A DNA stretch of 58,431 bases from a virus (lineage: Duplodnaviria; Caudoviricetes): IMG/VR virus record IMGVR_UViG_3300021425_000043, positions 1 through 58,431 of that record; one strand, written 5' to 3'. Shown here piece after piece: positions 6,611 to 47,116 of the stretch. The stretch's first letter is position 1, and the number at the start of each line of letters is the position of its first letter. The notes beneath the pieces are model-generated. The model saw nothing but the letters and a program-made list of their open reading frames with translations. It made no database searches and was not told the DNA's origin. The position numbers were made by a program, and so were the translations under genes.

Positions 6611-6875
6611 AATGCCTGCGAGGAATAAAAAGAACTTTAGGGCAACTAAAAAGGGTGCTGGGATGACTAAAGCTGGGGTAAAAGCCTACAGAAGAATGAA
6701 CCCAGGGTCTAAATTAAAGACCGCAGTAACAGGAAAAGTTAAAAAAGGCTCAAAAGCAGCAAAAAGACGTAAATCTTTCTGCGCTAGAAGTGCGGGGCAG
6801 ATGAAAAAGTTCCCAAAAGCAGCAAAAAATCCAAATTCAAGGCTAAGACAAGCCCGTAGAAGATGGAAATGTTAA
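6591..6875 (+). CDS. small basic phage protein
   Basis: 94 aa, 'RRKSFCARS.G...PNSR...ARRRWKC' pattern; AGGAGG RBS before GTG. Confidence 0.7.
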   Translation: MPRKRSKMPARNKKNFRATKKGAGMTKAGVKAYRRMNPGSKLKTAVTGKVKKGSKAAKRRKSFCARSAGQMKKFPKAAKNPNSRLRQARRRWKC

Positions 6876-6890
6876 TAAAAGGAGAAGAAA

Positions 6891-6980
6891 ATGGGATACG
6901 CAGGTATGTACAAAAAATCGTCACCAAAAAAAGCTAAAAAAGCTAAGAAAAAAACAGCAAAGAAAAGCAAGAAAAAGTAA
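6891..6980 (+). CDS. tiny Lys-rich protein (29 aa)
   Basis: MGYAGMYKKSSPKKAKKAKKKTAKKSKKK; AAGGAG RBS; stop abuts terL GTG. Confidence 0.65.
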   Translation: MGYAGMYKKSSPKKAKKAKKKTAKKSKKK

Positions 6981-21900: not shown

Positions 21901-24873
21901 AAGAAAGTAAAACCTTTTAGACCAAAAGGTCAGCAAGAAGCAGTCAACCTTAGTTCTAGAGAAGCAGCTATAGATAGAAAAGTTGAAAGAGCGGAAAGAA
22001 AATTAACAGCAGCTACAAAAGGAGAGGATGTTGCAAATAATGTTTTCTTCCAAGCAGAGAAACAAGGAGAGCAAGAAATCCAAGAAGATCCAACTGATCA
22101 ATACGCTTTCGATAGCAATCCTTTGTTTAGAGAATGGGCTAAAAAACCTGCGCGGTCTGCAGAACAACGAGAACTAGATGCAACGCAAGCAAAGGCGGGA
22201 AAAGAATATGTGCAATATAGTTCTACTATAGAGAAGCATCTTGGTGTAGAAGTTTTAGATGCTTTAAAAAACATTGCTAAAAATACATTAGGGCTAAATA
22301 GAGAGATGTTATTCTTCAGTGCAGAAGATACTATTGTTCTAGAAGATAAAAATTTAGAAAAAAGAGCAAGAGCTGCACAGGCTAAATTTGGGCCTGAGTC
22401 TAATCAACGTGGTATAAATATACGAGGCCGTGGCAACACTGACGTTATTATTATACAGACTAGAGACGGTTTTAACGCAGAAGACCAAGGAGCTCGACTT
22501 TTTGCTGTAGCCCACGAAATAGGACATTCTTTTATTTATCAAGAATTAGATAGAAGTTTAGGTGTAAAAACCCTTAGAAATGCTTTACAAAAAGCTTTTG
22601 ATGAAGAACTAAAGACTAATACAACTGATCAATATTCTTTGCCGGACGGTAAAGGTTTCCAAGAATGGGTATCAGACCAAGTAGCCGTATTTTTAATTGA
22701 TGAGACTAAGAAAGCTAAAAACCAAACAGAGTCATTCTTTAAAAATATTGCAAATAAAGTAAAAGCTTTCTTCTCTAAGTATGAAGCTGTAGCAAAAAGA
22801 AGGTTCACACAAAACCCTGCTTTTAATGATTATATCCAAGAAGTTATGTCTTCTACTAAAAACAATAAATTTAAGTATGAACAAAAAGCTAGAGTAGAAG
22901 AAAAAATAGAAGAAGTTAAACAGGTATTAGACAAAGGGGCCGCACAAACTCTTAAACGTATAACCAACAAAATTGTAGAAGATGGAGAAATACCTAATTC
23001 TAGAGTAGATGCAGCAACACGTACTCTTAGAACTATCTTTCAAGATGCCGATGGGCTACTTAGGAGTTTTGGAGAACCAGGCAAAGCCTTAGCAAGGCTC
23101 TTTAAGCAAAGAGTGGGTACTAAAGAAAAGACTGCTTACCTAACTAAAGTATTTAGTCTTGCTCGTGCAAAGATGAATGAGATACAAACTATTTTGAACG
23201 TAGAGTCCCCAGGTGATATGAATGAAGCAGTTGAACAAGTATTACAAGAGTTAGAAAATCCAGATACTCCTTTTGAACAGTTATCACCGCAAGCTCAACA
23301 GATGCGCACCTTTTTAATTAAACACTACAACGATTTAAATTTAGGTGAGTTAGGAGTGGGTTTCTTAGAAAACTATTTCCCTAGGTTGTATAAGATAGAA
23401 GAACTATTGAATGACCCTGGTTTAAGAGAAACTTTAATTGAAACCTTAGTTCAATATAATCCTGGCTTGTCAAAAAGTGACGCAACAGATGCTGTTGTAG
23501 ATATGTTACGTGACCCAAGTGAAGATGCTAACTTTAATAGGGCTGCAGAAGATGAGTATGCAGTGGGTATGTTAGCGCAGAGAGCAGAGTTATTTAGAAA
23601 TATACCTACAGATGCTTTAAGAAATGCTGAGCTTTTAGAAGACGCTTCTTACGCTTTACAGAGATACATACAGAACTCTACTAAAAGAAGAGGTTTTGCT
23701 GATTTTGGCGGTACACAAGCCATAGAAGAACAGCTAAGCCTTATAAAAGACCCTAAAGAAAGAGAACTAGCTAAAGATGCAGTTAAAGCAATACTAGGTA
23801 GGGTTGACCCTATAGAGAGTAAAACTTTTAGAAACATTAACAATGCAGGTTTATTTTTTAATGTCACTACATTATTACCTTTATCTGTCTTTGCTTCTTT
23901 CCCAGATCTAGCAGGCCCTATCTTGCGTTACAGAGGCATACCTAACTTTTTAGAGACTATGCGTACTGTTACTGCAGCTATGTCGGAAGCAGAAGTAGAT
24001 CAATTTGCAAAAGATATAGGAGCTGTTGGTATTAATGCTATGAATGAGCAATATGTGGGTGCGGGAGAACTACAGTACACAAGTAAAAAGACTAAAAAAT
24101 GGACTAATAATTTCTTTAGGTTTATACAATTAGAACAGTTTACTAATTTTACTAGACGATTTGCTGCAGGCATGGCCCGTGTATTTTTAATAGATAATGC
24201 GAATAAAGCTTTAGCAGGAGATGAGACTGCACAACGTTACCTAGGAGAGCTTGATGTAACAGCTGACGAAGTTATAGCATGGGGTGGGGGAGATATCACT
24301 GCTCCGTCCCATCAAAGAGTTAGACTAGCGGCTGCTAGATTTGTAGATGAGGCTATTGTTAGACCTAATGCAGCCGAGAGGCCTGTTTGGGCTTCTGATC
24401 CTAGGTTTGCCTTAGTTTGGCAACTTAAGTCTTTCTTTTATTCTTACGGCAAAAACATCGTAATGGGCACAGGTAGAGAGATGCAATCTAGAATGGCAGA
24501 AGTTGGTATGAAAGGGGCTGCAATACCTTTATTTATGGGTGCAGTTACTCTGCTTCCTTTAACTATGTTAGGCCTTGATTTAAGAGAAAGATTTAAAATT
24601 GGTTTAGCTTGGGCGTTGCCGGGTGTTAGCCCTGAAGATAAGAATTATAGAAGGTCTTTAGATATGGACATGGGGGAATATAGCGTTGAGATTATAGATA
24701 GATCTGGAATATTAGGCCCATATACAATGGCGTTGCCTTTATTCATAGAGAGAAAACGTTATGGAGACCCTCTATGGGTAGGGCCATTAGGGCCTACTAT
24801 AGGTACAGGTTATGATTTGATATCGGGTGATATTAAACCAAAGAATTTAATTCCATTTTATTCACCATTATAG
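18979..24873 (+). CDS. large internal virion/polyvalent protein with zincin-like motif
   Basis: 1964 aa; Gly/Ala hydrophobic N-terminal helices, HEIGH plus downstream 'FQEWVSD', helical C-terminal region. Confidence 0.65.
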   Translation: MAIPKEFIGSQSERDIRANNLKDLEPLIGTQSKRILGPEDRVEVDDLTSGIERFRASFKAGQANLVSSLANFDASVAALTGNEERMNESLKRAKDEQEVGAYYLLDSQPFEEFIKAPTFSGFVDSAIEATGQFAPTAITSVIAALAGAGVGASLSYLTGSSSLFAAAGSTGLTTIPASLASRKFIQTEVEDILKKKVTLDVLKKQGKKTAITMTPEEDKVVNLLYPYLRSQLRNKYATRGAVAGAFAQEQPIGAGIAFGDYAEQDMTDPITAFRAQQQGATFGLIGVGSEALIYKAIVGNLKSKAAKNLINERAILDAPSAGKSTLDIVSRGLGAGVLTGVSEGVAEGLQEELSVQQKLRIDDEYTKTQANLDRLQALYMGAIGGMGIGTGTGTSTAVLGKMRELVEIGYEKRMFDLYQKTKQGENNPILETQTDLSAQFRDLQDPNINRDFVWVDQQNYEEFGPIANRIEKISNLERTMIPGVGTFFTLDGDLNQRFVNTMSAAPLNRKRLLEFLDIYGKNPPTEGKGMRVVVSVRGQNNEVLKRYDVEAGEEEQTAITAAQNYIGGPDGTNNRNIVVQTLEAFNEERAGKLPVREEESAMEEDLDDYEANQTPFETFTTEQERLFAQDTQTEPQIVPDLKARNIREQQGSLENPIGRETDGRPFGVVKNQKFVVKKGDELYNKILNGAEDTTPLAPEFVTEFDRLVTAGKISEGVANRYLKLNQALARSDLLGNQAYGFGEQSEGIVIYKYNMPGVSAAVGTQNVTPDLAQKVAAIVGRGRTNKPPKDRDPRSQRRFTRFELEKDGEKTPVDPNRFTNIGRNISKAFGNNIEGDFQSAIGGFGFLLAEMSANGYTLLFEGKPFTDEQAGIAQIYNKDGRSLTLEQMQRQIGRETSLQRNRNVPLTETSTLEGIERDDLEAAQNLVEEAEKQVKLAKEELEQVKEDVEVEKAALKQGLTEEEISSGMFVSQTGKKVKPFRPKGQQEAVNLSSREAAIDRKVERAERKLTAATKGEDVANNVFFQAEKQGEQEIQEDPTDQYAFDSNPLFREWAKKPARSAEQRELDATQAKAGKEYVQYSSTIEKHLGVEVLDALKNIAKNTLGLNREMLFFSAEDTIVLEDKNLEKRARAAQAKFGPESNQRGINIRGRGNTDVIIIQTRDGFNAEDQGARLFAVAHEIGHSFIYQELDRSLGVKTLRNALQKAFDEELKTNTTDQYSLPDGKGFQEWVSDQVAVFLIDETKKAKNQTESFFKNIANKVKAFFSKYEAVAKRRFTQNPAFNDYIQEVMSSTKNNKFKYEQKARVEEKIEEVKQVLDKGAAQTLKRITNKIVEDGEIPNSRVDAATRTLRTIFQDADGLLRSFGEPGKALARLFKQRVGTKEKTAYLTKVFSLARAKMNEIQTILNVESPGDMNEAVEQVLQELENPDTPFEQLSPQAQQMRTFLIKHYNDLNLGELGVGFLENYFPRLYKIEELLNDPGLRETLIETLVQYNPGLSKSDATDAVVDMLRDPSEDANFNRAAEDEYAVGMLAQRAELFRNIPTDALRNAELLEDASYALQRYIQNSTKRRGFADFGGTQAIEEQLSLIKDPKERELAKDAVKAILGRVDPIESKTFRNINNAGLFFNVTTLLPLSVFASFPDLAGPILRYRGIPNFLETMRTVTAAMSEAEVDQFAKDIGAVGINAMNEQYVGAGELQYTSKKTKKWTNNFFRFIQLEQFTNFTRRFAAGMARVFLIDNANKALAGDETAQRYLGELDVTADEVIAWGGGDITAPSHQRVRLAAARFVDEAIVRPNAAERPVWASDPRFALVWQLKSFFYSYGKNIVMGTGREMQSRMAEVGMKGAAIPLFMGAVTLLPLTMLGLDLRERFKIGLAWALPGVSPEDKNYRRSLDMDMGEYSVEIIDRSGILGPYTMALPLFIERKRYGDPLWVGPLGPTIGTGYDLISGDIKPKNLIPFYSPL

Positions 24874-33838: not shown

Positions 33839-34087
33839 ATGGAAGACAACAAAATAAAAGAAATAAACTTCAACGGCAACGTTTACGCTATTGAAGATCT
33901 AACACCTAGAGCAATCGAAGGTTTTAATGCTTTGTTTAAGGCACAACAGAAACTTAACGATCTTGCTGTAGAAGTAAAAATCGTGCAGGGAGGGCAAAGT
34001 CATTTAAGTGCGGAATTGGAAAAAGTCATTACAGAAGATAAAATCAAGCCTCAGCCACCAGTCGAAGAAGAAAAAGCCGAAAAGTAA
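33839..34087 (+). CDS. hypothetical protein
   Basis: 82 aa, AAGGAG RBS. Confidence 0.65.
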   Translation: MEDNKIKEINFNGNVYAIEDLTPRAIEGFNALFKAQQKLNDLAVEVKIVQGGQSHLSAELEKVITEDKIKPQPPVEEEKAEK

Positions 34088-34088
34088 A

Positions 34089-34541
34089 ATGGATATCGAA
34101 AAGTGCAAAGCTGATATCAAAAGGCACGAAGGCGAAGTTCTTGAGATATATGAAGATAGTTTAGGCTATAAAACACTAGGCGTTGGCCATCTGTGCCAAC
34201 CAGGCGACCCAGAGTACGATTGGGAAGTAGGTACACCGGTGAGTCAGGAAGTAGTTGATATGTACTACGAAGATGACTTTGATAAACACTACAAAGAAGC
34301 TATTCACGTCTTTGGTAGTGAAGAAGATTTTGATAAATTACCCGAAGATATACAACACGTATTGGTTAATATGTGTTTTAATCTAGGAGGTAGCAGGCTT
34401 TCTAAGTTTAGAAATATGTTAGATGCCTGTAGAAAACATGAATGGGAACGAATGGCTGCTGAAATGGAAGACAGTAGGTGGTTTAAACAAGTAGGAAGAA
34501 GGAGTCTAGAACTACAAGCATTAGTTCGTAATACTGTATAA
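34089..34541 (+). CDS. endolysin, T4-like lysozyme (GH24)
   Basis: HEG...YEDSLGYKTLGVGH catalytic E-D-T pattern, NMCFNLG, SRWFKQVGRR; start at ATG 34089. Confidence 0.9.
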   Translation: MDIEKCKADIKRHEGEVLEIYEDSLGYKTLGVGHLCQPGDPEYDWEVGTPVSQEVVDMYYEDDFDKHYKEAIHVFGSEEDFDKLPEDIQHVLVNMCFNLGGSRLSKFRNMLDACRKHEWERMAAEMEDSRWFKQVGRRSLELQALVRNTV

Positions 34542-36540: not shown

Positions 36541-38828
36541 TGGCTGCAACCAAAGTTCCGGCTCTAAAAAATGTACCAGTTAAAATAGATAGAGAGTTAA
36601 GAGATACTCTCGAGTCTATGAGAGAAGCTCAAGAAATAAGATTAGGTAGACGTGGTGACCCCTTAGACAGAGCTATAACCTTAAGAGAGTTAATAGATTC
36701 TGGTTTAGCTAAGAAACTTACCAACAGGCCTTTTAACCCTAACGGCTTAATTGATTTTATACCAAATGATGATACCGTTGGCGATTTAGATATACCGCCT
36801 GCGCCTACATCTTTAGAAGCTTCTGGTGCTTTTACAGAAATTATAGTTAGTTGGAATGGTATGAGCGCATCCGCTCCTTATAGAAACCATGCCTATACAG
36901 AGGTATGGCGTTCTAGAGATGACGAACTAGGAACTGCTGTTCTTATAACAACAACTAGTTCTTTTATTATTACAGACCCTGTAGGTTACAACCAAACTTA
37001 CTACTACTGGGTTAGGTATGTAAGTACTTCTGATGTTAAAGGTCCTTTTAATCAGACCAACGGCACAAAGGCTGAAACAGTAGAAAACATAGCTGAGGTA
37101 ATGCAACAGCTTTCAGAAGAGCTGCAAGATTTGCCTGGCTACGCAGCTTTGAATACTTTGATAACTAATGCAGACGTAGCAGTAGCTGCAAAAGCTGCAA
37201 ACGTTATTAGAGCTACTTCAGCCCCGACTACAAGAACAGACGGTTCTTCTTTACAAGCAGTCGATATTTGGGTAGATACTAATGACAACAACCAGGTTTA
37301 TATAAGAAACTCTAGTAACAACGGTTGGGAAAAAGCTAGAGATTCATCATTAATCTCACTTTATAATACTTTGAGTTCTACTGTATCAACTAACTCAACA
37401 AACATAGCAACCGCTCAGTCTGACATTGTTACCTTAACAACAGCTAATTCTTCTAGGGTTAGCGAGATAACAGAACTAGAAGCTACTTTAACTGGCTTTA
37501 GCAGTTCATCAACGGTTACTGCTGCTATAACAGCAGAACAAACAGCTAGGGCAAATGCTGACTCTTCTTTGGCTACTGACATTACAAATTTGACAGCGAC
37601 TGTAAACTCAAACACTTCTGCTATCTCAACAGAACAAACAACTAGAGCAAACGCAGATAGCGCATTAGCGACAGACATTACTAATTTAACCTCAACAGTT
37701 AACTCTAATACCTCTGCAATATCTTCTGAAGCAACAACCAGAGCTAACGCAGATTCTGCTTTAGCAACTGATATAACAAATTTGACATCTACGGTTGGGG
37801 GAAATAGTTCCAGTATAACTACTTTGAACACCACTACCGCTAATATAAACGGCGATTTAAATGCTATGTACGTGCTCCAGGTATCGACCGAAAGCAACGG
37901 CAGTGTATCTGCAGCTGGTATGGTTATTGGTTCCAATGCTAATAATGGATCTGGAGCACAATCTTACGTGCAATTCCAGGCAGATAAGTTTGCAATATGG
38001 AACGGGTCTTCTGCTACAGCTCCATTTATTGTAAGCGGTGGCACGGTTTTTATAGACAGTGCACGTATCCAAGACGGAGCTATAACAAACGCTAAAATTT
38101 TAAACGGTACTATTCAAGAAGCTAAGATAGGCGATGCTCAAATCACAACAGCTAAAATAGCGGATGCTAATATAACCAACGCTAAAATAGTTGATGCTAC
38201 TATACAAGGTGCAAAAATTGCTAATGCTGCAATTACAAATGCAAAAATAAATGATTTAAATGCTGACAAGATAAATGCGGGCATAATATCTGCTGACAGA
38301 ATTGGTGCTAATACTATTACAGCAACAAAAATAAACACAACTGATTTATTCCTACCCTCAAACGGTGGAGAAAAAACAGGTTCCACGTTAGGCTACTGGC
38401 ACGAGAACGATCTTAACTATAGACACGTAGCTGAGATAGGTTCAGGTGCTGGGTTTTATACAGGGTATATACGAGTTTATAAAGGAATTTATGCTGGTCA
38501 AATAAAAAACATTAGTTTTCTAGTATCGGATGGGACATTTGGTGCAAGTAGTGCTAATGATGTTAATACCAGTGTAACCTTTAGTGATATAACTAAAATA
38601 ACTGAAAGTGCCTCTCACGCTATTTTAGTTACCCCAAATCTACAGTATTTATCGGGAGGTTGGATTTCTAATAGTAGATTAACTACAGGTAAAGATAGTT
38701 CAAATATACCTATATCTTTTAGATACACCGGCACCGGAACTCTTAACTTTTTTATATATGCAGAGGCAGACAGTAATTATCAGTTGATGGGAGGAGCAGA
38801 CGCTAGGTTTGTTAAATTTAGCTCTTAA
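36540..38828 (+). CDS. tail spike/host-specificity protein with coiled-coil repeats
   Basis: FN3-like 'YYYWVRYV', three 32-aa repeats, 'ADKFAI...PFIV.GG.VFIDSA' segment, ITNAKI repeats. Confidence 0.7.
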   Translation: MAATKVPALKNVPVKIDRELRDTLESMREAQEIRLGRRGDPLDRAITLRELIDSGLAKKLTNRPFNPNGLIDFIPNDDTVGDLDIPPAPTSLEASGAFTEIIVSWNGMSASAPYRNHAYTEVWRSRDDELGTAVLITTTSSFIITDPVGYNQTYYYWVRYVSTSDVKGPFNQTNGTKAETVENIAEVMQQLSEELQDLPGYAALNTLITNADVAVAAKAANVIRATSAPTTRTDGSSLQAVDIWVDTNDNNQVYIRNSSNNGWEKARDSSLISLYNTLSSTVSTNSTNIATAQSDIVTLTTANSSRVSEITELEATLTGFSSSSTVTAAITAEQTARANADSSLATDITNLTATVNSNTSAISTEQTTRANADSALATDITNLTSTVNSNTSAISSEATTRANADSALATDITNLTSTVGGNSSSITTLNTTTANINGDLNAMYVLQVSTESNGSVSAAGMVIGSNANNGSGAQSYVQFQADKFAIWNGSSATAPFIVSGGTVFIDSARIQDGAITNAKILNGTIQEAKIGDAQITTAKIADANITNAKIVDATIQGAKIANAAITNAKINDLNADKINAGIISADRIGANTITATKINTTDLFLPSNGGEKTGSTLGYWHENDLNYRHVAEIGSGAGFYTGYIRVYKGIYAGQIKNISFLVSDGTFGASSANDVNTSVTFSDITKITESASHAILVTPNLQYLSGGWISNSRLTTGKDSSNIPISFRYTGTGTLNFFIYAEADSNYQLMGGADARFVKFSS
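37536..37823 (+). repeat. three degenerate 96-bp tandem coding repeats
   Basis: E(Q/A)T(A/T)RANADS(S/A)LATDITNLT units starting at 37536, 37632, 37728. Confidence 0.8.
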
Positions 38829-38836
38829 ATATTTTT

Positions 38837-39190
38837 ATGGCTTGGAATAGTACAGTATCAGATATACACACTTTTACTACAGTGTTTACCGTTAAAAACA
38901 TTTACCACAGACAAAAAGAGATGGACGGTGAGCAAGTTGTTTACAACATACACTTCAAAGTAGTAGGAACAGACACAGATGGCAGTGGTAATACTTACAC
39001 ACTTGAGGATGAAATGTTAGCTTTTGATATGTCCTCTGTTGATACTGCAAGTTCAGATTTTATTAACATAGATGATGTTACAAACGAAATAGCTAAACAG
39101 TGGGTTGTAGACTTTTTTGCTGGTAACAACAATCTAGATGTAGCATTTACCAACTTGTTATATGGTGTTCCAGATACAGATGGAACGTGA
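38837..39190 (+). CDS. hypothetical protein
   Basis: 117 aa acidic ORF after tail spike. Confidence 0.6.
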   Translation: MAWNSTVSDIHTFTTVFTVKNIYHRQKEMDGEQVVYNIHFKVVGTDTDGSGNTYTLEDEMLAFDMSSVDTASSDFINIDDVTNEIAKQWVVDFFAGNNNLDVAFTNLLYGVPDTDGT

Positions 39191-39201
39191 TAATATAAAC
39201 T

Positions 39202-39396
39202 ATGGCGTATAAAAGAAAAACAACTAGAAAAGCACCAACAAAAAAGAAGTCTTTGACTAAAAGACAAGAAGCTAGTATGAAGCGGCATTCTAAACACCAT
39301 AGTGCAAGTCATATGAAATATATGAAAAGGCGTATGCTTATGGGTGATACATTTAGAACTGCTCATAAAAAAGCACAAGCAAAAGTAGGTAAGTAA
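39202..39396 (+). CDS. small basic His/Lys-rich protein
   Basis: 64 aa 'KRHSKHHSASHMKYMK...F..AHKKA'. Confidence 0.65.
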   Translation: MAYKRKTTRKAPTKKKSLTKRQEASMKRHSKHHSASHMKYMKRRMLMGDTFRTAHKKAQAKVGK

Positions 39397-39818
39397 TGTA
39401 CGAATACAGTTGCGGTATAACTAGGATCGTGGACGGAGATACTGTCGACGCTGAGATAGACTTAGGCTTTGACATTGTATATAAGTCTCGTGTCAGACTA
39501 TACGGAATCGACACGCCAGAATCACGAACACGTGATTTAGATGAAAAAGCTAGAGGTAAACTAGCAGCAAAGTTTTTATCCGATGCTATCTTGCATGCAG
39601 ATACATTAGTCATACAAACAAAACTAGATAAGAAAGGGAAGTTCGGTAGAGTTCTAGGCGTTATCGTTGCAGATGGCGTAGATCTAAACCAAGCGCTTAT
39701 AGACAATCATCTTGCTGTTGCCTACACAGGCCAGAGTAAAGATGATATAGAGGCACAACATTTAGCAAACAAGGAGGAGCTGTTAAAGCTTGGAAAATAT
39801 GAAGAAATTATTAACTAA
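39396..39818 (+). CDS. thermonuclease (SNase-like)
   Basis: VDGDT, RVRLYGIDTPE, GKFGRVLG motifs. Confidence 0.88.
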   Translation: MYEYSCGITRIVDGDTVDAEIDLGFDIVYKSRVRLYGIDTPESRTRDLDEKARGKLAAKFLSDAILHADTLVIQTKLDKKGKFGRVLGVIVADGVDLNQALIDNHLAVAYTGQSKDDIEAQHLANKEELLKLGKYEEIIN

Positions 39819-40269
39819 CATAGTAGGGAGCGTAGCTCCAACATTAGGTGCGGCACTCGGTGGCCCTTTAGGTGGCATGGCAGGTGACGTTATATCCAAA
39901 GTATTAGGTGTAGAAAACAATCCAGCATCATTAGAAAAAGCAATTGCACAAGCAACACCAGAACAATTGATGGAAATTAAAAAAGCAGAGATAGAGTTCG
40001 AAGCTAAGATGAAAGAGCTGGATGTAGACATATACAAAATAGAAGCTGAAGAGAAGAAAGACGCACGTAAACACTTTTCTAAAGACTGGACTGCTAGGAT
40101 TATAGGTATAGCCATGGTTGGTGGTTTTCTTGGTTATATCTTTCTTGTAACGCTACAACCACCAGAGCAAAATAGTGAGGCTCTGATTAATTTAGTGCTA
40201 GGTTACTTGGGTGGCCTAGCGTCTGCAGTAATATCATTTTATTTCGGAGCCTCCAATAAACAAGAATGA
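39799..40269 (+). CDS. holin-like membrane protein
   Basis: 'VAPTLGAALGGPLGG' N-terminus, two TM helices, terminal 'SFYFGAS'; AGGAGGAG RBS region. Confidence 0.6.
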   Translation: MKKLLTNIVGSVAPTLGAALGGPLGGMAGDVISKVLGVENNPASLEKAIAQATPEQLMEIKKAEIEFEAKMKELDVDIYKIEAEEKKDARKHFSKDWTARIIGIAMVGGFLGYIFLVTLQPPEQNSEALINLVLGYLGGLASAVISFYFGASNKQE

Positions 40270-40616
40270 CCGAAGCGATTACGGTAATCCAAGAAGTTGG
40301 TTTTCCTATAGCAGCTGCAGCTGGTTTAGGTTGGTTTATTTATAAACTAATCATGCGTATTGTGGACGGTATGGAGACAAAACTTGATACCGTAGATGAA
40401 AAAGTAGAATCTCAAATAGCAGCCATAGAAGAACGACTAGGCACAAAACTTGACTCACAGCATGGTATTTTAGTAGCCTTAATAGACAGGGTGCGTAGTT
40501 TAGATAACGAAATTATAAGACAAGACACTTTGATAAAGACTATTCTTGGCGTACCTCAACTAATAGATAGCAATAAAATTGCTAAGGCGGATAGAGATGA
40601 CCAAAGAAAAGATTAA
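40266..40616 (+). CDS. membrane-anchored coiled-coil protein
   Basis: 'IQEVGFPIAAA' N-terminal TM, then coiled coil; overlaps both neighbours. Confidence 0.65.
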   Translation: MTEAITVIQEVGFPIAAAAGLGWFIYKLIMRIVDGMETKLDTVDEKVESQIAAIEERLGTKLDSQHGILVALIDRVRSLDNEIIRQDTLIKTILGVPQLIDSNKIAKADRDDQRKD

Positions 40617-41139
40617 AAGAAAAAGAGGCAGACCCTCTAACGCAGAACTAAAGCGTAGAAAAGAAGAAAGGGAAAAGGATCTTATCCTAAGGGTATTGCT
40701 TGCGATAGGGGTTTTTCTAATTGGTGCTATAGTTTCACAAAACTTATTAGCAGACCAAATGACCCATAAGTTTAAGTCTCCTTCTTTTAGTGGAGAAAAT
40801 ACTTCTAGTCACTACCTAACAATAGATAATGTTGAATACACTAGAAAAATGTCTATAAAAGCAGAATTAAAAGCTTTGCAAGACCAAATAAAAAGAGACA
40901 AAGAGAACACAACCCTTGCTAGATTTGTCCGTAATTTAGAGTCTAGGATTTATGCACAGTTGTCTAGACAACTTGTAGAAGCTTTGTTTGGAGAGACTCC
41001 AAGCGATAATGGTACAATTGAGTTAGAAGGTAATACAATTACCTATAGTGTAGTAGACGGTATAATAACTCTAACTGTGGTGGACTCGGACGGCAATGAA
41101 ACAATTATTCAAATTCCTATCGGTAGTTTTACTTTCTAG
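40597..41139 (+). CDS. csgF: curli assembly protein CsgF homolog
   Basis: Hydrophobic signal/TM then 'HKFKSPSFSG' (cf. CsgF F.NP.FGG), 'F..NLESRIYAQLS', C-terminal 'TIIQIP'; directly before csgG. Confidence 0.8.
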   Translation: MTKEKIKRKRGRPSNAELKRRKEEREKDLILRVLLAIGVFLIGAIVSQNLLADQMTHKFKSPSFSGENTSSHYLTIDNVEYTRKMSIKAELKALQDQIKRDKENTTLARFVRNLESRIYAQLSRQLVEALFGETPSDNGTIELEGNTITYSVVDGIITLTVVDSDGNETIIQIPIGSFTF

Positions 41140-41956
41140 TTGTGCGTCCTTAATATTTGACCCGATAGAAAATAACATAGGCCCAATCCAAAAAATAGAA
41201 AGGGCAGAGGTAGAAACACTCGCAGTATCTAATCTTTCTTCTGTTGGAGTGCCAACACGTAAACCAGTCATTGCAGTTTATCCTACAAGTTTTACAGACC
41301 AAACAGGACAAAGGTTAAGCAATTCAAGCTACGCTTCTTTCTCTACTGCAATAACTCAACTACCAAGTGCCTATTTAATAAGAGCTTTGCATAAAGCAGG
41401 CTCGGATCACGGGGGGTTTTTTACTGTAGTTGAAAGGGTAGGTTTAGATAACTTAACTAAAGAACGCCAAATTATAAGAAGCACTAGAGAAAAAGAAGAT
41501 AATGCCAAGGAGCTAGGGGCCCTTTTGTTCGCAGGTTTAATTATAGAAGGGGGTGTGATAGGATATGAGAGTAACGTTACGTCTGGCGGTGCTGGAGCAC
41601 GCTATTTAGGCTTAGGTGCAACCAAAGCGTATAGAAGAGATTCAGTAACAGTACAACTTAGGTTGGTATCTGTTACAACGGGAAAAGTTTTGCTAGAGAC
41701 ACTGGTGACTAAAACAATACTAAGTGCCTCATTAAGTAACGATGTTTTTCGATTTATTTCTGATAATACAGAGTTAGTCGAAATAGAAAGTGGTGTTGTA
41801 AGAAACGAATCCGGAGGATTGGCTTTAAGGGCCGCCATAGAAACAGCAGTTCTGCAGATAATTAAGGAGGGTACAGAAGCAGGCTATTGGAGTATACATG
41901 AAAAATATAAAACTATTGATTGCGATGCTGATTGTGTCGCCTCTGTACGCGGCTGA
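41096..41956 (+). CDS. csgG: curli secretion channel CsgG homolog (lipoprotein)
   Basis: Lipobox LSSC; 'FTDQTGQR', 'FSTAITQ', 'VVERVGLDNLTKERQIIR', 'EGGVIGYESN..SGGAGARYLG', 'YRRD.VTV.LR.V'. Confidence 0.92.
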   Translation: MKQLFKFLSVVLLSSCASLIFDPIENNIGPIQKIERAEVETLAVSNLSSVGVPTRKPVIAVYPTSFTDQTGQRLSNSSYASFSTAITQLPSAYLIRALHKAGSDHGGFFTVVERVGLDNLTKERQIIRSTREKEDNAKELGALLFAGLIIEGGVIGYESNVTSGGAGARYLGLGATKAYRRDSVTVQLRLVSVTTGKVLLETLVTKTILSASLSNDVFRFISDNTELVEIESGVVRNESGGLALRAAIETAVLQIIKEGTEAGYWSIHEKYKTIDCDADCVASVRG

Positions 41957-42608
41957 TAACGAAATATATGTAGATCAAGCCGGTGCTACTTTAAACCTAG
42001 ACTTAGAACAACTTGGTTCTGGTAATATTATAGGCGGGCTTAATGCTGCTGCTGGTAGTATGACTGCTCTTGACCTTGATGGCGCTACTATGACTTTAGA
42101 CATAAACCAAATAGGTGGTTCTAATACATTTTTAGGGGATATTTTAGCTGACAATTTTACAGGTTTTTTTGAGTTTGATGGAGACAGTAATGACTTTACA
42201 ATCCAAGTAGACCCTACTAATACCTATGGAGCTGACGGTAGTAATCTTAATGTAGACGTTACAGGAGACAGCAACGACTTTACGTTAAACGTAGGGACAA
42301 CAGCTTTAACTGGTAATTTAGACTTAGATTGGATTATAAATGGTTCTAGTAATACATTTGATTTTGATATTAACTACGATGGTGCTACATCTTATGTAGA
42401 CGTAGATGGTGATTCTAACAATGTTACATTTGATGGTTCAGGCTATGCAGGCGGATATTTTTACCTTGACCAAACAGGTAATAGTAGAACATTTAATATT
42501 CAACAACTGAGTACCCAAGATAATGACTGGCTTAAAATTATATCTAACGGTAATGGTGGTACTGTTTGCGTCATTCAAAACGACCAAGGCACAGGCACAA
42601 GCTGTTAA
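41898..42608 (+). CDS. secreted curlin-like beta-solenoid protein
   Basis: Sec signal then 'DNEIYVDQAG' and repeated x-G-(D/S/G)-S-N turns with alternating hydrophobics; C-terminal Cys pair. Confidence 0.7.
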   Translation: MKNIKLLIAMLIVSPLYAADNEIYVDQAGATLNLDLEQLGSGNIIGGLNAAAGSMTALDLDGATMTLDINQIGGSNTFLGDILADNFTGFFEFDGDSNDFTIQVDPTNTYGADGSNLNVDVTGDSNDFTLNVGTTALTGNLDLDWIINGSSNTFDFDINYDGATSYVDVDGDSNNVTFDGSGYAGGYFYLDQTGNSRTFNIQQLSTQDNDWLKIISNGNGGTVCVIQNDQGTGTSC

Positions 42609-43632
42609 TATTGGAGATATTTCTGAACTAAAAGGGACTGCTAGCGTCTTAAGAGACCAACCTTACGGCGCTGAATTAGATTTTGACATTCAACAAATGG
42701 ATGACGTTCGTACAACTAACGGACGTGTAGGCATAACATTCCTGGACAATTCTATTGTACGACTGACGGAACATTCTAAACTTGTCATAACTGAATACAT
42801 TTACGACCCTGACCCTTCAAAAGGTAAAATGGCCATGACGTTTGCTAGCGGTACGGCTAGGTTTATAAGCAGTAAACTAGGCAAGATTGATAAAAAAAAC
42901 ATAAAACTTTCTACACCTACAGCTGACATTGCAATTCGTGGGACTGATTTTACGTGTACCGTAGACGAACTTGGACGTTCGCTTATTATTTTACTACCTG
43001 ATGCTAACGGTTTATCTAGTGGCGAAATACTTGTTACAACCGCTGCAGGCACAGTTACTTTAAACAGACCTTATGAAGCTACGACTGTTAATGTATTTGA
43101 AAACGCACCTAGTAAACCTGTTATATTAGATTTAACTTTAGACATAATAGACAACATGTTGATTGTTAGTCCTCCGGACGAATCAAAGTTATCCACAGAA
43201 TCATCCACAACGTCCGGAAATACTGGGGCAATTTTAGATATAGACTATTTAGAGTTTGAGGATTTAGAGTTTGATTATCTAGCAGAAGACTCGCTTGAAT
43301 TTAGTGAGCTTGATATAAATTATTTAGATGTTAATTTTTTTGAAGATTTATTAGAAGTTATAGAAGAATTAGATACTTTGGGAGACCAGGCATTGACTAC
43401 AGGTTCAGTGCTGCAGGGCACAACCTTTGGGCAAGATTTAGTTACGCAAATTACAACTTTTAAACAAGATGAAAGCATTATTTTAGAAAGAGCAGTAACG
43501 CAAGCTACTAAGTTGACCCTAAACATATCGCAGGGCTATACTATAATATTACTGCAGGATGGTAAAACACAACAAGTGTTAATAAATGGTGGAGGTGACT
43601 CTACTATAAGGATTACACAGGGGTCAGGATGA
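42523..43632 (+). CDS. FecR-domain periplasmic protein
   Basis: Signal peptide; 'DDVRT...ITFLDNS.VRL.EHS.L', 'GTARF', 'TPTADIAIRGTDF'; acidic linker and beta-rich C-terminus. Confidence 0.82.
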   Translation: MTGLKLYLTVMVVLFASFKTTKAQAQAVNIGDISELKGTASVLRDQPYGAELDFDIQQMDDVRTTNGRVGITFLDNSIVRLTEHSKLVITEYIYDPDPSKGKMAMTFASGTARFISSKLGKIDKKNIKLSTPTADIAIRGTDFTCTVDELGRSLIILLPDANGLSSGEILVTTAAGTVTLNRPYEATTVNVFENAPSKPVILDLTLDIIDNMLIVSPPDESKLSTESSTTSGNTGAILDIDYLEFEDLEFDYLAEDSLEFSELDINYLDVNFFEDLLEVIEELDTLGDQALTTGSVLQGTTFGQDLVTQITTFKQDESIILERAVTQATKLTLNISQGYTIILLQDGKTQQVLINGGGDSTIRITQGSG

Positions 43633-45380
43633 AGAAATGGATTTCGTTATTAGCAATACCAATACTAGCTATACCACTGCTGTTTAACTGGCAGGCACTA
43701 GAGATACTTAAATTAAAAACATTTGATGCTTTCGTACAAAAACAAGATCCATCTGGCTGGTTTGTAACTTTAGATATAACAGAAGAAGATGTAGCAACTG
43801 CAGGTGGGTGGCCGTACCCGCGTCAGGACTTGGCACGCATTCATTTAGATTTATTAGAAGCAGGAGCTTTAGGTGTAGGTTGGGTTGTTGCTTTTCCACA
43901 AGCAGATAGGTTTGGTGGCGACCAAGCATTTGGAGATGCTTTGTTACAAGGTGCGAGTGTTATTGCTACTTTTGAAGGTGGGGCTTCGTATGCACCTACC
44001 ACAGGCACAGTCATACTAGGAGATGGTATACCTATAGAAGCTATAAAAGCTCAAGGTGTTATTGGAAATGTACCCGTGCTAGCAGAGTCAGCTTACCAGG
44101 GGCTGGCAGTTGCACGAACTGACGTAGATAATTTAGTTAGACGTTTACCCTTACTATTACAAACACCTGATGGTTGGACGCCGTCTTTTGGTATACAAGT
44201 AATGAAGATGATTGGTGGCGCAGATACGTACATTATTAAAGGGCAGCAAGGGCAGATAGAAGAACTGACTGTACCTAACTACGCACAAATACCTGTAGAT
44301 AGCATTGGGCGTCGTTGGGTGTCTTGGGTTGATACGCCAAGCACAAGCCTAGAAGAGATGGATGTACGAGATAAATTTGTGTTTATAGGCGTGAGTGCAA
44401 AAGGTGTTATGCCTCAAATAGCTACGCCAGTTGGATTGTTGTACCCACATGAGATACAAGCTGCACTAGCTGAGAGTATGACAATGGATGTACCAGCTAT
44501 ACCAGGCAATGCTCTATTATATGAATTACTTATATTAGTTACAGTACTAACCTTAGCCATAGTTATAATACGTACATTAGGGCTCGTCGGAACTTTAGTA
44601 GGGACCGTGGGCCTCGTATCGTTAACCGCGGTCGGAGGTTGGTACTTAATTGCATCGAATATACTTATAGATGTTACTTATAGTATATTATCAGCCATAC
44701 TTATATCTATTCAAGAATTTTATTTACGCTTTAACGAACAATTTAAACTTAGACAATTAATAAAGAAACAGTTTGAACACTACTTAGATCCGAAACAAGT
44801 TGCACGATTACAAAACAACCCTGGCTTATTACAATTAGGTGGAGAAAAACGTATATGTACATTCTTGTTCACAGACGTCAGAGGGTTCACGAATCTGTCC
44901 GAAAAATTATCTCCTGAAGAAGTAACAGAAATAATGAATAAAGTTCTTACTGTACAAGTTACATGTATTCAAGCACATGGTGGTATGGTAGATAAGTTTA
45001 TAGGCGACGCATGTATGGCCATCTTTAATGCCCCCCTATCTATAGATGAACATGAAAAACGTGCAGTCGCCTGTGCTCAGGATATGCGTACGGCTATTCG
45101 CATGCTGCAAAAAGAATTGTCCGAACCAATTGCAATAGGCATAGGTGTTAATACAGGCGAAGCAGTAATAGGTAACATGGGCTCAGATACTAGGTTTGAT
45201 TATTCAGCAATAGGAGATGCGGTAAATACGGCTGCACGATTAGAGAGTGCAACTAAAGAAGCTGGAGTAGATATTTTAATTGGAGAAACTACTGCTAAGA
45301 AGATGTTGTATGATCTGACACTATTAGCTCCTATAAAAGTAAAAGGTAAAGCAAAACCTTTAAAGGTGTATACTATATAA
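43629..45380 (+). CDS. CHASE2-domain class III adenylate cyclase
   Basis: CHASE2 'GGWPYPR', 'D.DNLVRR.PL', 'DKFVFIG', 3 TM helices; cyclase FTDVRGFT, DKFIGD, DYSAIGDAVNTAARLE. Confidence 0.92.
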   Translation: MKKWISLLAIPILAIPLLFNWQALEILKLKTFDAFVQKQDPSGWFVTLDITEEDVATAGGWPYPRQDLARIHLDLLEAGALGVGWVVAFPQADRFGGDQAFGDALLQGASVIATFEGGASYAPTTGTVILGDGIPIEAIKAQGVIGNVPVLAESAYQGLAVARTDVDNLVRRLPLLLQTPDGWTPSFGIQVMKMIGGADTYIIKGQQGQIEELTVPNYAQIPVDSIGRRWVSWVDTPSTSLEEMDVRDKFVFIGVSAKGVMPQIATPVGLLYPHEIQAALAESMTMDVPAIPGNALLYELLILVTVLTLAIVIIRTLGLVGTLVGTVGLVSLTAVGGWYLIASNILIDVTYSILSAILISIQEFYLRFNEQFKLRQLIKKQFEHYLDPKQVARLQNNPGLLQLGGEKRICTFLFTDVRGFTNLSEKLSPEEVTEIMNKVLTVQVTCIQAHGGMVDKFIGDACMAIFNAPLSIDEHEKRAVACAQDMRTAIRMLQKELSEPIAIGIGVNTGEAVIGNMGSDTRFDYSAIGDAVNTAARLESATKEAGVDILIGETTAKKMLYDLTLLAPIKVKGKAKPLKVYTI

Positions 45381-45626
45381 ATGCCAAGAAACTATAAATT
45401 AGAATACGAAAGATATCACAAGTCACCTGAGCAAAAGAAACGTCGTGCGGCACGAAATAAAATACGCAGAGAGCTATTAAGTAGTGGTAGAGTTAGAAAA
45501 GGAAGTCGTGTTGATGTACATCATAGAGATGGAAACCCAGAAAATAACTCTCCAGGCAACATTGTTTTGCAAGATAGGTCAAAAAACCGTTCTTTTGCCA
45601 GAAATAGCAAATCTGGGAAAAAATGA
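45381..45626 (+). CDS. small HNH-like protein
   Basis: 'DVHHRDGNPENN..GN......NR' motif. Confidence 0.7.
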   Translation: MPRNYKLEYERYHKSPEQKKRRAARNKIRRELLSSGRVRKGSRVDVHHRDGNPENNSPGNIVLQDRSKNRSFARNSKSGKK

Positions 45627-45684
45627 CCTCACAGAAGGCCGCCTGTTGCATTTTGTTAAGGTACCTAAGGCCTTAGGTCCAAAA

Positions 45685-45948
45685 CTATCTAAAATCGTTT
45701 GGCGGGCTTGTACGTGCGTCCTCTGCGTTTTCTTCTTTTTCGAGTGTTTTAATTAATCTTTTTAGATACCATTCAGCTTTTAAGACATCTTGTAGCCCTT
45801 TTTTGGCTTCATAGCGCCACATATACTTTTGAATGTTACCTTTAAGATAACCTTTAAAGGCTTCAGGGGTCATACTTTCTTCTATTGCCACAATACATTC
45901 CACATTTCCTGTGTTGTAATGCGGAGGTGAGTTTACATAATCAGTCAT
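45685..45948 (-). CDS. DUF3310-like protein
   Basis: 'VNSPPHY...ECI.AI...GN..KY.WRY..K.G.QD..KA.WYL'. Confidence 0.8.
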   Translation of the reverse strand: MTDYVNSPPHYNTGNVECIVAIEESMTPEAFKGYLKGNIQKYMWRYEAKKGLQDVLKAEWYLKRLIKTLEKEENAEDARTSPPNDFR

Positions 45949-46342
45949 TTGTTTCTCCTAAACAAAAATTAGTTAATACTTTTATAAATATTTTAAACGG
46001 TATCGCTTCTTTTACAAATTGCGCTACTGTAATGTGTGTGGTTGTAAAATCTTCAGTGACGTACACTAGATCCCCAGATGCAAATACTGCGTACGTAAAG
46101 ACACCATGTTCTTTTTGGCGAGTAAGCCAAATGCGCTGTTGCTCAGATAAGTTAATTTTTATTTTTGAGTTAAGCTTTGCAGGCAAGTCTTCTTTGTATT
46201 TATATTCAATCCAACAATGATTTGCTGGTCCTGAGTAGTAAGTGTCCGATACACCTCCGTGGTAAGGATCATTGATCTTCCACCTATAAACTTCTTTAGG
46301 TAGTTTTCTGTGGACTTTATTTATGAACTCCTTTTCACGCAC
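45941..46342 (-). CDS. VRR-NUC-like nuclease/resolvase
   Basis: 'REKEF', 'GVSD', 'WIEYK', 'LSEQQ..W'; likely start GTG at 46342. Confidence 0.7.
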   Translation of the reverse strand: MREKEFINKVHRKLPKEVYRWKINDPYHGGVSDTYYSGPANHCWIEYKYKEDLPAKLNSKIKINLSEQQRIWLTRQKEHGVFTYAVFASGDLVYVTEDFTTTHITVAQFVKEAIPFKIFIKVLTNFCLGETND

Positions 46343-46441
46343 ATCCTGAGTATAACATACGTACAAGGGTGCGAAGAAATAGTTCGTAGGGTGTACGTAC
46401 TTGGATGCGACAATATATGTCGCACCCGTACGAATACTTAC

Positions 46442-47116
46442 CTAGGACTTAGCAAATGTTTTGTTGTAAAAACCTTTTGCAATTTCGTAAGTTTCTTCTT
46501 TCAACCAACCAACGTTAGAAACAGCAATGTTCATAAATCGTTGTCCAGCTTTGTTAGCTGTTTGTACTGAAGACATTTTCCATAAGGAAGAAAATCTATC
46601 GCCCCCTAACTTAGCAATTTGTGTATTCCATTCTCTAGAAACTTTTAATTTAGAGATTGAACAATCAAACAAGAAAGGTATATCTGATATATCTCCTGTC
46701 TTTTCATCTACTTTTAATAGTGTATGAGTTTGAGTTCTGTTTATATCATAGTCCTCTACTTTAAGACCTTCATCTTCTAGATGTTGTAATGCTTCTGCTT
46801 GAGAGTTAAAAGTCCCTGCAAGACCACCACCTTTTTCTAATTGTTTCCACACTACAAACTCTTCTTTGAAGTGTACGTTAACTAGATAAAGTTCTTTACC
46901 GTAGTTTTCTTTGGTTACAGTATTAATGAAGTCACCTACTTTAGCGCCTTCAATATACTCGCTATGGTTTTCATCTACTTCGTTTGATAACTGCTGCAGC
47001 TGTTTCAAACGTGGTGTAGACAAATGCTCTGAGTTAATGTTTTCATTACCCAGATTTGTGCCATTCTTTACATGAGCTGGCATGGTGCTCGTTACTATAC
47101 TTATATCATTAGACAT
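46442..47116 (-). CDS. putative ssDNA-binding/replication protein
   Basis: 224 aa in replication module; 'PRLKQLQQLS.EV', 'GAKVGDF.NTVT'. Confidence 0.5.
   Translation of the reverse strand: MSNDISIVTSTMPAHVKNGTNLGNENINSEHLSTPRLKQLQQLSNEVDENHSEYIEGAKVGDFINTVTKENYGKELYLVNVHFKEEFVVWKQLEKGGGLAGTFNSQAEALQHLEDEGLKVEDYDINRTQTHTLLKVDEKTGDISDIPFLFDCSISKLKVSREWNTQIAKLGGDRFSSLWKMSSVQTANKAGQRFMNIAVSNVGWLKEETYEIAKGFYNKTFAKS

Follow-up and report, generated by a model that had tools for sequence, protein, structure and literature searches.

A marine podovirus-like phage genome carries a curli-type secretion module joined to a FecR-domain protein and a CHASE2 class III cyclase

Genes of the module

The virus record IMGVR_UViG_3300021425_000043 of the IMG/VR database, analysed here over its full length of 58,431 bases (the window), carries on the + strand at positions 40597-45380 five intact open reading frames (ORFs) encoding CsgF, CsgG, a curlin-like repeat protein (hereafter Rep), a protein with a FecR domain and a class III cyclase with a CHASE2 domain. 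This gene set is a further copy of a published marine-phage type VIII (curli) secretion module and is not new. It unites an alphaproteobacterial-type curli core with a bacterial FecR/CHASE2 sensor pair. A preliminary description of this DNA had placed five overlapping, intact genes in this interval; all five are present on the + strand, and four could be identified by Pfam. The start that it gave for the unit does not stand, however, as one additional conserved upstream gene, cc116, moves the start of the module to position 40266. The genes of the module are as follows:

40266..40616, + strand: cc116, a protein of 116 amino acids (aa) that has a coiled coil and, at its N-terminus, a transmembrane (TM) helix; first gene of the module
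40597..41139, + strand: CsgF (Pfam PF10614, 2.7e-16; phrog_35372, 2.2e-40)
41096..41956, + strand: CsgG, outer-membrane lipoprotein and channel subunit (Pfam PF03783, 8.5e-49; phrog_20175, 1.7e-65)
41898..42608, + strand: Rep, 236 aa, putative secreted curlin-like beta-solenoid (CsgA/B-like), by its repeats, structural model and profile matches
42523..43632, + strand: secreted FecR-domain protein (Pfam PF04773, 3.3e-11; phrog_37870, 8.2e-74)
43629..45380, + strand: CHASE2 class III cyclase (Pfam CHASE2, 5.8e-29; Guanylate_cyc, 2.5e-22)

Successive genes from csgF to the cyclase gene overlap by 44, 59, 86 and 4 nt, as calculated from their coordinates, the last overlap consisting of an ATGA in which the cyclase start codon is superimposed on the FecR stop codon, while csgF overlaps cc116 by 20 nt. 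This arrangement suggests coupled translation. Each of the CsgF, CsgG, FecR and cyclase proteins belongs to a PHROGs family (E 2e-40 to 2e-111), and known phages therefore carry these four genes. At the DNA level, blastn comparison of the module against 50,697 phage records gave no match, relatives being visible at the protein level only. Pfam was searched with 51 of the window proteins, while nine large proteins were compared against PHROGs alone.

The translated csgG product aligns over residues 1-271 with the CsgG chains of Escherichia coli (3X2R, 4Q79, 6L7A; phmmer E 2.1e-42), and its lipobox, LLSSC, is aligned with the LLSGC of the E. coli protein. CsgF consists of a basic N-terminal stretch, a hydrophobic signal/anchor segment, a conserved mature N-terminus and a C-terminal domain. 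The motif H-x-F-x-x-P-x-F-x-G in the mature N-terminus is common to phage and alphaproteobacterial CsgF, and residues P68, G72, S76, H78 and L80 are invariant (alignment A7). A CsgG-family lipoprotein and a CsgF with a conserved mature N-terminus, two core parts of type VIII secretion systems (T8SS), are thus both encoded. No members of the CsgE, CsgC, CsgD and CsgH families were found among the 51 Pfam-scanned window proteins, and the phage module is likewise described as lacking CsgE by Wittmers et al. (PMC9599517). CsgE, CsgC and CsgD define the gammaproteobacterial operon and not the T8SS core.

Rep, which the preliminary description had read as curlin-like, has no Pfam match at E ≤ 0.1. 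Its sequence is built on the motif Q/D-x-G-x-x-N, repeated every ~22-25 residues with invariant G and N columns (alignment A5), and the AlphaFold (AF2) model is an all-beta solenoid behind a signal peptide (predicted local distance difference test, pLDDT, 87.2; predicted template modelling score, pTM, 0.80). The best VIA match of this model is Pontibacter CsgA (8c50_A; Z 17.5; root-mean-square deviation, rmsd, 8.7; 194 residues; 22% identity), followed by SufD-type beta-helices at Z 15-16 (second row 15.8) and 5-8% identity, while Foldseek comparison against the PDB returned nothing at E ≤ 0.001 and weak beta-helix rows only. A sequence profile of 37 relatives also finds curlin 8C50 as its best PDB match, at a marginal E of 0.047. 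By hhalign, the Rep family matches the C-terminal half of AGE60352 of phage HTVC008M, which carries Pfam Curlin_rpt, at 97.5%, and a true alphaproteobacterial curlin at 46% probability over 54 columns; the hidden Markov model (HMM) of the family furthermore detects an alphaproteobacterial protein with 11 Curlin_rpt repeats encoded beside csgFG (7e-7). The curlin-like reading is favoured by the CsgA match, the solenoid model and these profile matches, which lend moderate support to Rep being a divergent CsgA/B-like subunit. The C-terminus of Rep, TVCVxQNDxGTSTSC in the A5 consensus, is conserved and contains two cysteines, one of which is the last residue; we know of no counterpart of this segment in E. 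coli CsgA.

The window holds one curlin-like gene, while HTVC008M and the Methylophilales phage Melnitz have a second one located between the FecR and cyclase genes (Pfam Curlin_rpt 5.2e-8 and 1.9e-4, respectively). In AGE60352 (L001:5583-6908), the second repeat protein of HTVC008M, the curlin repeats (5.2e-8) are accompanied by a PA14 domain (2.7e-6), a carbohydrate-binding/adhesion module whose presence hints at an adhesive fibre tip.

The FecR-domain protein comprises a signal peptide, a FecR/PupR-type beta domain (residues ~28-205), an acidic linker and a small C-terminal beta region. In its AF2 model residues 28-205 have a pLDDT of ~85, while the acidic stretch and the C-terminal beta region fall below 50. 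Foldseek matches the domain to the C-terminal cell-surface signalling domain of PupR (6ovk_R; E 7.3e-5, rmsd 2.7, 148 columns), with a second match to a Bacteroidetes anti-sigma factor (4M0H). The title of entry 6OVK indicates that the PupR-type fold binds a domain of the outer-membrane transducer. Where FecR and PupR have an anti-sigma domain in the cytoplasm and an anchor in the membrane, the phage protein has a signal-peptide-like segment, and neither an extracytoplasmic function (ECF) sigma factor nor a TonB-dependent transducer was found in the Pfam and PHROGs scans of the window. Fused FecR forms were absent at E ≤ 1e-5 among proteins of 647-2000 aa, which constitutes weak evidence. Prediction of a complex between CHASE2 (22-296) and mature FecR (28-369) from 37-row alignments gave no verdict (score 0.12, mark 0.32) and is silent either way.

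In the cyclase, one TM helix precedes a periplasmic CHASE2 domain (~22-296), which three more TM helices separate from the class III domain (~410-581); the hydrophobic segments were read off the sequence. Across 37 phage sequences no variation is seen at D416, K456, D460, R522, N533 or R537. We take these to be the metal-binding, adenine-specifying and transition-state residues, with D416/D460 as the metal-binding Asp pair, K456 as the substrate Lys and N533/R537 as the Asn/Arg pair. As the catalytic residues are all retained, the sequence predicts an active, ATP-specific enzyme. It shares 31.6% identity with the HTVC008M cyclase and 31.2% with that of four Melnitz records (tblastn).

The first gene of the module, cc116, abuts or overlaps csgF in all 37 viral loci with at least 700 nt of sequence upstream of csgF (27 counted directly and ten in which it overlaps csgF by 16-32 nt), and counterparts with 32% identity precede csgF in HTVC008M and Melnitz. 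The Atlas clusters of cc116 contain viruses only and correspond to no Pfam family; the nearest named clusters are holin and releasin families, with scores < 0.9 that make them leads only. Its conservation far exceeds that of the downstream genes, as in locus L054, where identity to the window is 92% for cc116, 54% for CsgF and 52% for CsgG, and a short variant is missing 22 residues of the coiled coil (alignment A8). A relationship with i-spanins was considered and rejected (BLASTP E 8.7 to the Rz-like protein of locus L251). By position only, cc116 and the gene for a 159-aa membrane protein directly upstream of it correspond to the genes labelled histidine kinase (HK) by Wittmers et al. (PMC9599517). 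No histidine-kinase family was matched at E ≤ 0.1 by any of 27 cc116 relatives, nor was one found in 24 relatives of the 159-aa protein or among the Pfam-scanned window proteins, and at 116 and 159 aa both products are too short for a kinase core. Provided that the positional match is correct, the published label is contradicted, the product being a small membrane/coiled-coil protein without a kinase domain.

Conservation and origin of the gene set

Co-conservation of the genes in related phages had been set beforehand as a test of the unit, and was observed in two sets of viral loci, one seeded with the cyclase (the best 80 of at least 600 IMG/VR matches) and one seeded with CsgG (the best 80 of 328 relatives), the latter seeding avoiding a bias towards the cyclase. 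CsgF, CsgG, Rep and FecR occur in the order of the window in 34/34 cyclase-seeded loci with at least 4.3 kb of upstream sequence. Rep and FecR are likewise present in all 69 CsgG-seeded loci whose downstream sequence reaches 2 kb or more, and Rep, FecR and the cyclase in 40 of the 42 where it reaches 5.2 kb or more. FecR and cyclase genes are separated by ≤ 100 nt in 54/75 loci. The order in HTVC008M and Melnitz is csgF, csgG, curlin-associated protein, FecR/hypothetical protein, second repeat protein and cyclase. The shared order and co-occurrence, which extend to these two T4-like phages at 31-45% protein identity, argue that selection acts on the gene set as a whole.

Bacterial counterparts of the cyclase were collected with a profile of eight phage cyclases, and the best 80 loci, mostly from Alphaproteobacteria and with 26-32% identity, were scored with HMMs built from the phage module proteins. 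A FecR-domain ORF is present in 44 of these loci, lying ≤ 500 nt from the cyclase in 36 and upstream on the same strand in 26. The earlier suggestion that FecR and CHASE2 proteins are paired in bacterial signalling loci agrees with these 36/80 loci and with published cases (PMC5192318, PMC5498481). Five of the bacterial FecR neighbours were compared against Pfam; two carry additional TPR domains, one an RTX/DUF4114 and one a cadherin/Big_9 domain, while one has none above threshold, a pattern in keeping with one shared docking domain to which different input modules are attached.

CsgG, CsgF, Rep and cc116 are absent from all 80 bacterial cyclase loci, and no CsgG was found anywhere in five whole genomes bearing such cyclases. 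Conversely, a sample of 401 alphaproteobacterial genomes contained 15 with a match to the phage CsgG (E ≤ 1e-8), seven of them close (39-49% identity). All seven close csgG loci have an adjoining csgF and four contain weak Rep-like matches, while neither FecR nor the cyclase was found within ~10 kb of csgFG in any of the seven. A join of the curli core to FecR/CHASE2 was not found in the bacteria examined. As both halves stand apart in these bacteria, the core and the sensor pair appear to have been joined in phage, with the sensor pair predating the phages.

Neighbouring genes and the carrier phage

The genes surrounding the module include the following:

34008-34541: endolysin (Phage_lysozyme, 6e-9), 5.4 kb upstream of the module and behind tail genes
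39396-39818: staphylococcal-nuclease-like gene (Pfam SNase, 3.6e-12; phrog_452)
39790..40269, + strand: membrane protein of 159 aa, glycine-rich at the N-terminus and with two hydrophobic helices at the C-terminal end (phrog_1544, function unassigned, 8.2e-25)
45381-45626: HNH endonuclease, 81 aa (Pfam HNH_3, 2.2e-5; phrog_4590)

In the window the tail fibre gene is followed by two small genes, the SNase-like gene and the gene of the 159-aa protein, then by the module from cc116 to the cyclase and by the HNH endonuclease gene, after which replication genes follow on the opposite strand. This position at the end of the late structural block means that the module is probably expressed late. A promoter and terminator scan of 38500-46500 gave counts no higher than the shuffled expectation. 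The HNH gene begins at the base immediately following the cyclase stop codon, and 26 of 79 unique related loci have the same gene behind the module. SNase-like genes lie close to the module or to lysis genes in many relatives, being found ≤ 1.5 kb upstream in 31/159 and downstream in 42/159 cases (duplicates included).

The 159-aa protein matches Pfam GTA_holin_3TM at E 0.05 in the window, and seven of 24 family members do so at E ≤ 0.1 (best 0.012). As these matches are sub-threshold only, identification as a holin was rejected; its sequence indicates a possibly holin-like, module-linked protein. Of the 80 cyclase-seeded loci, 12 have its gene upstream of the module and 18 have it downstream of the cyclase, at a distance of 2-219 nt. 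Lysis genes were counted in the 79 unique related loci, each with at least 2 kb downstream of the module. An endolysin or Rz/Rz1 spanin homologue follows the module within 1.5 kb in 39 of these loci, and the 159-aa membrane gene does so in 18. In locus L251 FecR is directly followed by Rz-like (phrog_739, 4.6e-12), Rz1-like (phrog_812, 1.3e-12) and endolysin (phrog_7, 1.6e-59) genes. No credible spanin homologue was found in the window with the L251 spanin proteins as queries or among small lipoprotein candidates.

CheckV estimates the window to be 98% complete, and its proteins include the large terminase, components of the virion (portal, major head, tail fibre and internal virion proteins), a DNA polymerase and a primase-like protein. 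The completeness and the virion, terminase and portal genes confirm the phage origin, and the carrier is a podovirus-like marine phage of 58 kb. Near-identical DNA (at least half of the sampled words) was detected in 18 sequencing runs; excluding a possible source run, the remaining 17 runs, from 14 studies, are metagenomes described as seawater, estuary, salt marsh or marine, and no RNA run was among those listed. Contigs from two runs that bear a metatranscriptomic label but are flagged as probably DNA are 90-99% like csgG, Rep and the cyclase gene, and do not count as expression.

The capsid and terminase are nearest to those of KPP25-like Pseudomonas phages and Aeromonas phage phiA008 (41-51% identity), the large terminase subunit (TerL) sharing 50.7% identity with that of phiA008 versus 35.5% with that of HTVC023P. 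Only four of 60 window proteins have matches in the first 50 kb of HTVC023P, and close membership of the HTVC023P type was therefore dropped. Pseudomonas podophages are placed as an outgroup to the 'HTVC023P-type' group (PMC9599517), and by that placement the window may belong to the group in a broad sense. A 94-aa protein (6591-6875) is 84% identical to a region of HTVC023P, gp43 by position, and may be a sign of gene exchange with SAR11 phages. No tRNA genes, scanned for host inference, were found in the window. Proteins at its left end have one Pfam match each, namely to an AAA ATPase (404-1420), a DUF2201 metallopeptidase/VWA-like protein, a 2OG-Fe(II) oxygenase, DUF3310 and a PD-(D/E)XK nuclease. 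An ORF of 1964 aa (18979-24873) weakly matches virion structural families over its C-terminal quarter only (phrog_30152, 2.4e-18).

Possible function and relation to known systems

We consider it quite possible, if somewhat short of probable, that the module encodes a single apparatus in which CsgG and CsgF export and display the solenoid, while the FecR/CHASE2 pair reads the state of that apparatus or of the periplasm and makes cyclic AMP (cAMP) that acts on the host. The module proteins would be made late in infection and assembled in the host envelope, where lipidated CsgG would form an outer-membrane channel into which the CsgF N-terminus inserts. The curlin-like solenoid would be exported through this channel and be displayed, or polymerise into fibres, on the infected cell. 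FecR and the cyclase would represent an envelope sensor pair of bacterial type, joined to the secretion genes by a phage lineage. In this scheme FecR would signal to the periplasmic CHASE2 domain what state the channel, its cargo or the periplasm is in, and CHASE2 in turn would switch the cyclase on the cytoplasmic side, so that the cAMP level of the host rises. PupR uses the same fold as the phage FecR domain to grasp the periplasmic part of an outer-membrane protein. As FecR never parts from the T8SS genes in the 69 loci described above and this fold holds outer-membrane proteins, coupling of the two halves is favoured, and a relay from pore to cAMP is plausible. The FecR genes next to bacterial CHASE2 cyclases (36/80 loci) and the reported activation of Sinorhizobium meliloti CHASE2 cyclases via the outer-membrane protein NsrA (PMC13001267) also speak for such a relay. 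A more elaborate scheme, a phage-built cell-surface signalling system with the CsgG/CsgF pore and a curlin cap as its outer part, FecR as coupler, CHASE2 as transmitter and sigma-factor control rewired to cAMP, seems unlikely. Were it true, the infected cell could, by a module situated amid lysis genes, read contact, superinfection or envelope damage and set the timing of lysis or host metabolism; the module would then correspond in function to the lysis inhibition of T4, in what are the most abundant phage-host systems of the ocean.

Several observations weigh against an apparatus of this kind, or against its strict coupling. No cyclic-nucleotide-binding domain, and hence no cAMP receptor, was found among the 51 Pfam-scanned window proteins, which speaks against a self-contained circuit and means that the cAMP must act on host proteins. 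E. coli curli require a nucleator besides the major subunit, and the window has a single curlin-like gene. Two of the 42 CsgG-seeded loci, L251 and L267, retain cc116, CsgF, CsgG, Rep and FecR and lack the cyclase (L251:5377-6515 is the corresponding stretch of one such natural variant), implying that FecR has a cyclase-independent role and that the cyclase is dispensable. The distance between FecR and cyclase genes exceeds 500 nt in 15/75 loci. In L007 the two are separated by an ORF (6563-8026) encoding a 487-aa DNA methyltransferase-like protein, presumably a cytosine-5 enzyme to judge by its motifs, and the junction thus tolerates insertions. Identity to the window shifts at the same junction in L004, from 75% for FecR to 94% for the cyclase, and the distance matrices of the six genes (mirror-tree) are weakly correlated (0.19-0.61), with values falling roughly with distance. 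These shifts and weak correlations indicate that the genes recombine freely, and the correlations are uninformative on contacts between the proteins. The module genes recombine, and the set is retained.

Alternatively, the two halves may be independent cargoes, with curli fibres coating or aggregating infected cells, either to capture siblings or as a shield against superinfection, and a separate FecR/CHASE2 cyclase sensing a cue unrelated to the channel and reprogramming host metabolism through cAMP. Each half does occur alone in bacteria, the T8SS core of csgF, csgG and curlin in the seven alphaproteobacterial loci and the FecR/cyclase pair in 36 of the 80 cyclase loci, none of them with csgG, and the recombination and insertions between FecR and cyclase point the same way, as do published hypotheses, which are fibre-based (PMC9599517; PMC9004378, quoting Zaragoza-Solas). 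FecR nevertheless stays with the T8SS even where the cyclase is missing, which would be unexpected if it served the cyclase only, the join of the two halves is retained across two phage families, and cells infected with Melnitz were not seen to clump (Buchholz et al., PMC9004378). We therefore regard independent cargoes as a rather unlikely explanation, though one to be taken seriously. Less likely still is a device for lysis timing, in which CsgG and CsgF, together with cc116 and the neighbouring membrane protein, would form a gated envelope pore with FecR and the cyclase as a checkpoint. That csgF and csgG are known from T4-like marine phages and have been discussed there as lysis or aggregation genes (PMC9004378, PMC7029224) is in line with the preliminary description, and the idea of CsgGF as a pinholin or secretin was put forward by Buchholz et al. 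(PMC9004378). The proximity of endolysin and spanin genes to the module in about half of the related loci, their position directly behind FecR in L251, the holin-like membrane gene on either side of the module in 30/80 loci, the holin and releasin leads for cc116 and the negative outcome of the search of the window for spanin homologues with the L251 queries would all suit such a role. Spanins and the module nonetheless co-occur in many loci, which implies that CsgG does not replace spanins, and the endolysin of the window is distant from the module; the end of a late operon commonly hosts accessory genes, so that adjacency may lack functional meaning. A pore, moreover, needs neither a curlin-like cargo nor a cyclase, and holins are triggered by depolarisation of the inner membrane, something that a channel in the outer membrane cannot bring about.

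Wittmers et al. (PMC9599517) also raised an uptake channel, whereby an ungated CsgG pore would admit cofactors or iron compounds to the periplasm with FecR as an iron-related regulator. We consider this highly improbable. The absence of the CsgE family from the 51 Pfam-scanned window proteins is in its favour, but the window scans revealed no TonB-dependent transducer, ECF sigma factor or transporter, and the conserved curlin-like cargo gene argues for export. FecR is, in addition, a protein-protein signalling fold and not an iron binder, as its fold match and what is generally understood of FecR and PupR indicate. The coupled apparatus of channel, solenoid and sensor pair thus remains the reading that we tentatively prefer. 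Whatever its function, the module is widespread in marine viruses, with at least 600 cyclase matches, 3684 Rep homologues in metagenomes and occurrence at 65/65 stations (PMC9599517), and its cultured carriers are HTVC008M on SAR11 and Melnitz on OM43. It would hand infected cells an envelope machine that is absent from the reported SAR11 and OM43 hosts.

The preliminary description knew of no functional description of the full five-gene unit in a phage; the unit as such, however, has already been described. Wittmers et al. (2022; PMC9599517) described the arrangement HK-CsgF-CsgG-CsgA/B-FecR-(CsgA/B)-AC, where AC is the adenylate cyclase, in nine podophage genomes and in pelagimyophages by computational means only, detected the genes at every Global Ocean Viromes 2.0 (GOV2.0) station and in metatranscriptomes, noted that FecR, HK and AC are foreign to bacterial curli operons, and inferred an alphaproteobacterial origin with transfer between phage families. 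The module in the window has the same set and order as that of HTVC008M (KC465899) and Melnitz (MZ577097), namely a small upstream membrane gene, csgF, csgG, curlin-like gene, FecR and cyclase, and its carrier resembles the podophages of that study in genome size (58,431 bp, against a mean of 58,776 bp) and marine habitat. It differs in the single curlin-like gene, the myophages having two, in the lack of a kinase domain in the gene or genes matched by position to HK, and in a capsid and terminase nearer to those of KPP25-like phages and phiA008, with few proteins in common with HTVC023P. The words used in the accessible text of that paper ('holin' 0, 'lysis' 2, both general) suggest that the lysis context is not discussed for podophages. 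Buchholz et al. (2022; PMC9004378) proposed, arguing from synteny, that CsgGF of Melnitz may be a gated pore for the timing of lysis; FecR and the cyclase go unmentioned in the accessible text. In the literature after PMC9599517 no functional work on the phage module was found, and on phage curli in connection with spanins the literature searches yielded PMC9004378 only. The present analysis adds that the sensor half corresponds to a pre-existing bacterial FecR/CHASE2 pair, that the FecR fold is of the PupR type, that FecR is kept when the cyclase is lost, that the 'histidine kinase', if rightly matched by position, is a small membrane/coiled-coil protein, and that the module lies close to endolysin or spanin genes in about half of the related loci.

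Bacterial curli systems resemble the module in the CsgG lipoprotein channel, the conserved N-terminus of CsgF and a solenoid that is most like CsgA. They differ from it in that the window lacks the CsgE, CsgC, CsgD and CsgH families, has one subunit gene and has FecR and a cyclase attached, and the phage host need not carry curli genes. The cyclase itself is, like CyaD1, CyaD2 and CyaK of Sinorhizobium meliloti, a CHASE2 class III enzyme of alphaproteobacterial type. SMc02177, the neighbour of cyaD1 in that species, has a FecR domain and is not needed for signal perception (PMC5498481), and the CHASE2 cyclases are reported to be activated by a plant protein via the outer-membrane beta-barrel NsrA (PMC13001267). 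The outer-membrane partner is thus NsrA and not CsgG, and the Crp-type receptor Clr is encoded alongside in S. meliloti, whereas none was found in the phage.

A comparable layout is that of the operon of Burkholderia and Pseudomonas aeruginosa with a LysM-FecR gene and a CHASE2 histidine kinase (PMC5192318), as both there and in the window the gene of a secreted FecR-domain protein lies immediately ahead of that of a CHASE2 receptor in the membrane. The output of that operon consists, however, of a histidine kinase and a response regulator, LysM is carried on the FecR protein and no secretion genes are included. In the FecA-FecR-FecI and PupB-PupR systems the differences lie in the anti-sigma domain and anchor, which the phage protein lacks, and in the sigma factor and TonB-dependent transducer, which the window lacks. 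What the phage protein shares with them is the FecR fold (6ovk_R), and by analogy with these systems we propose that it may serve as a link between the outer and the inner membrane.

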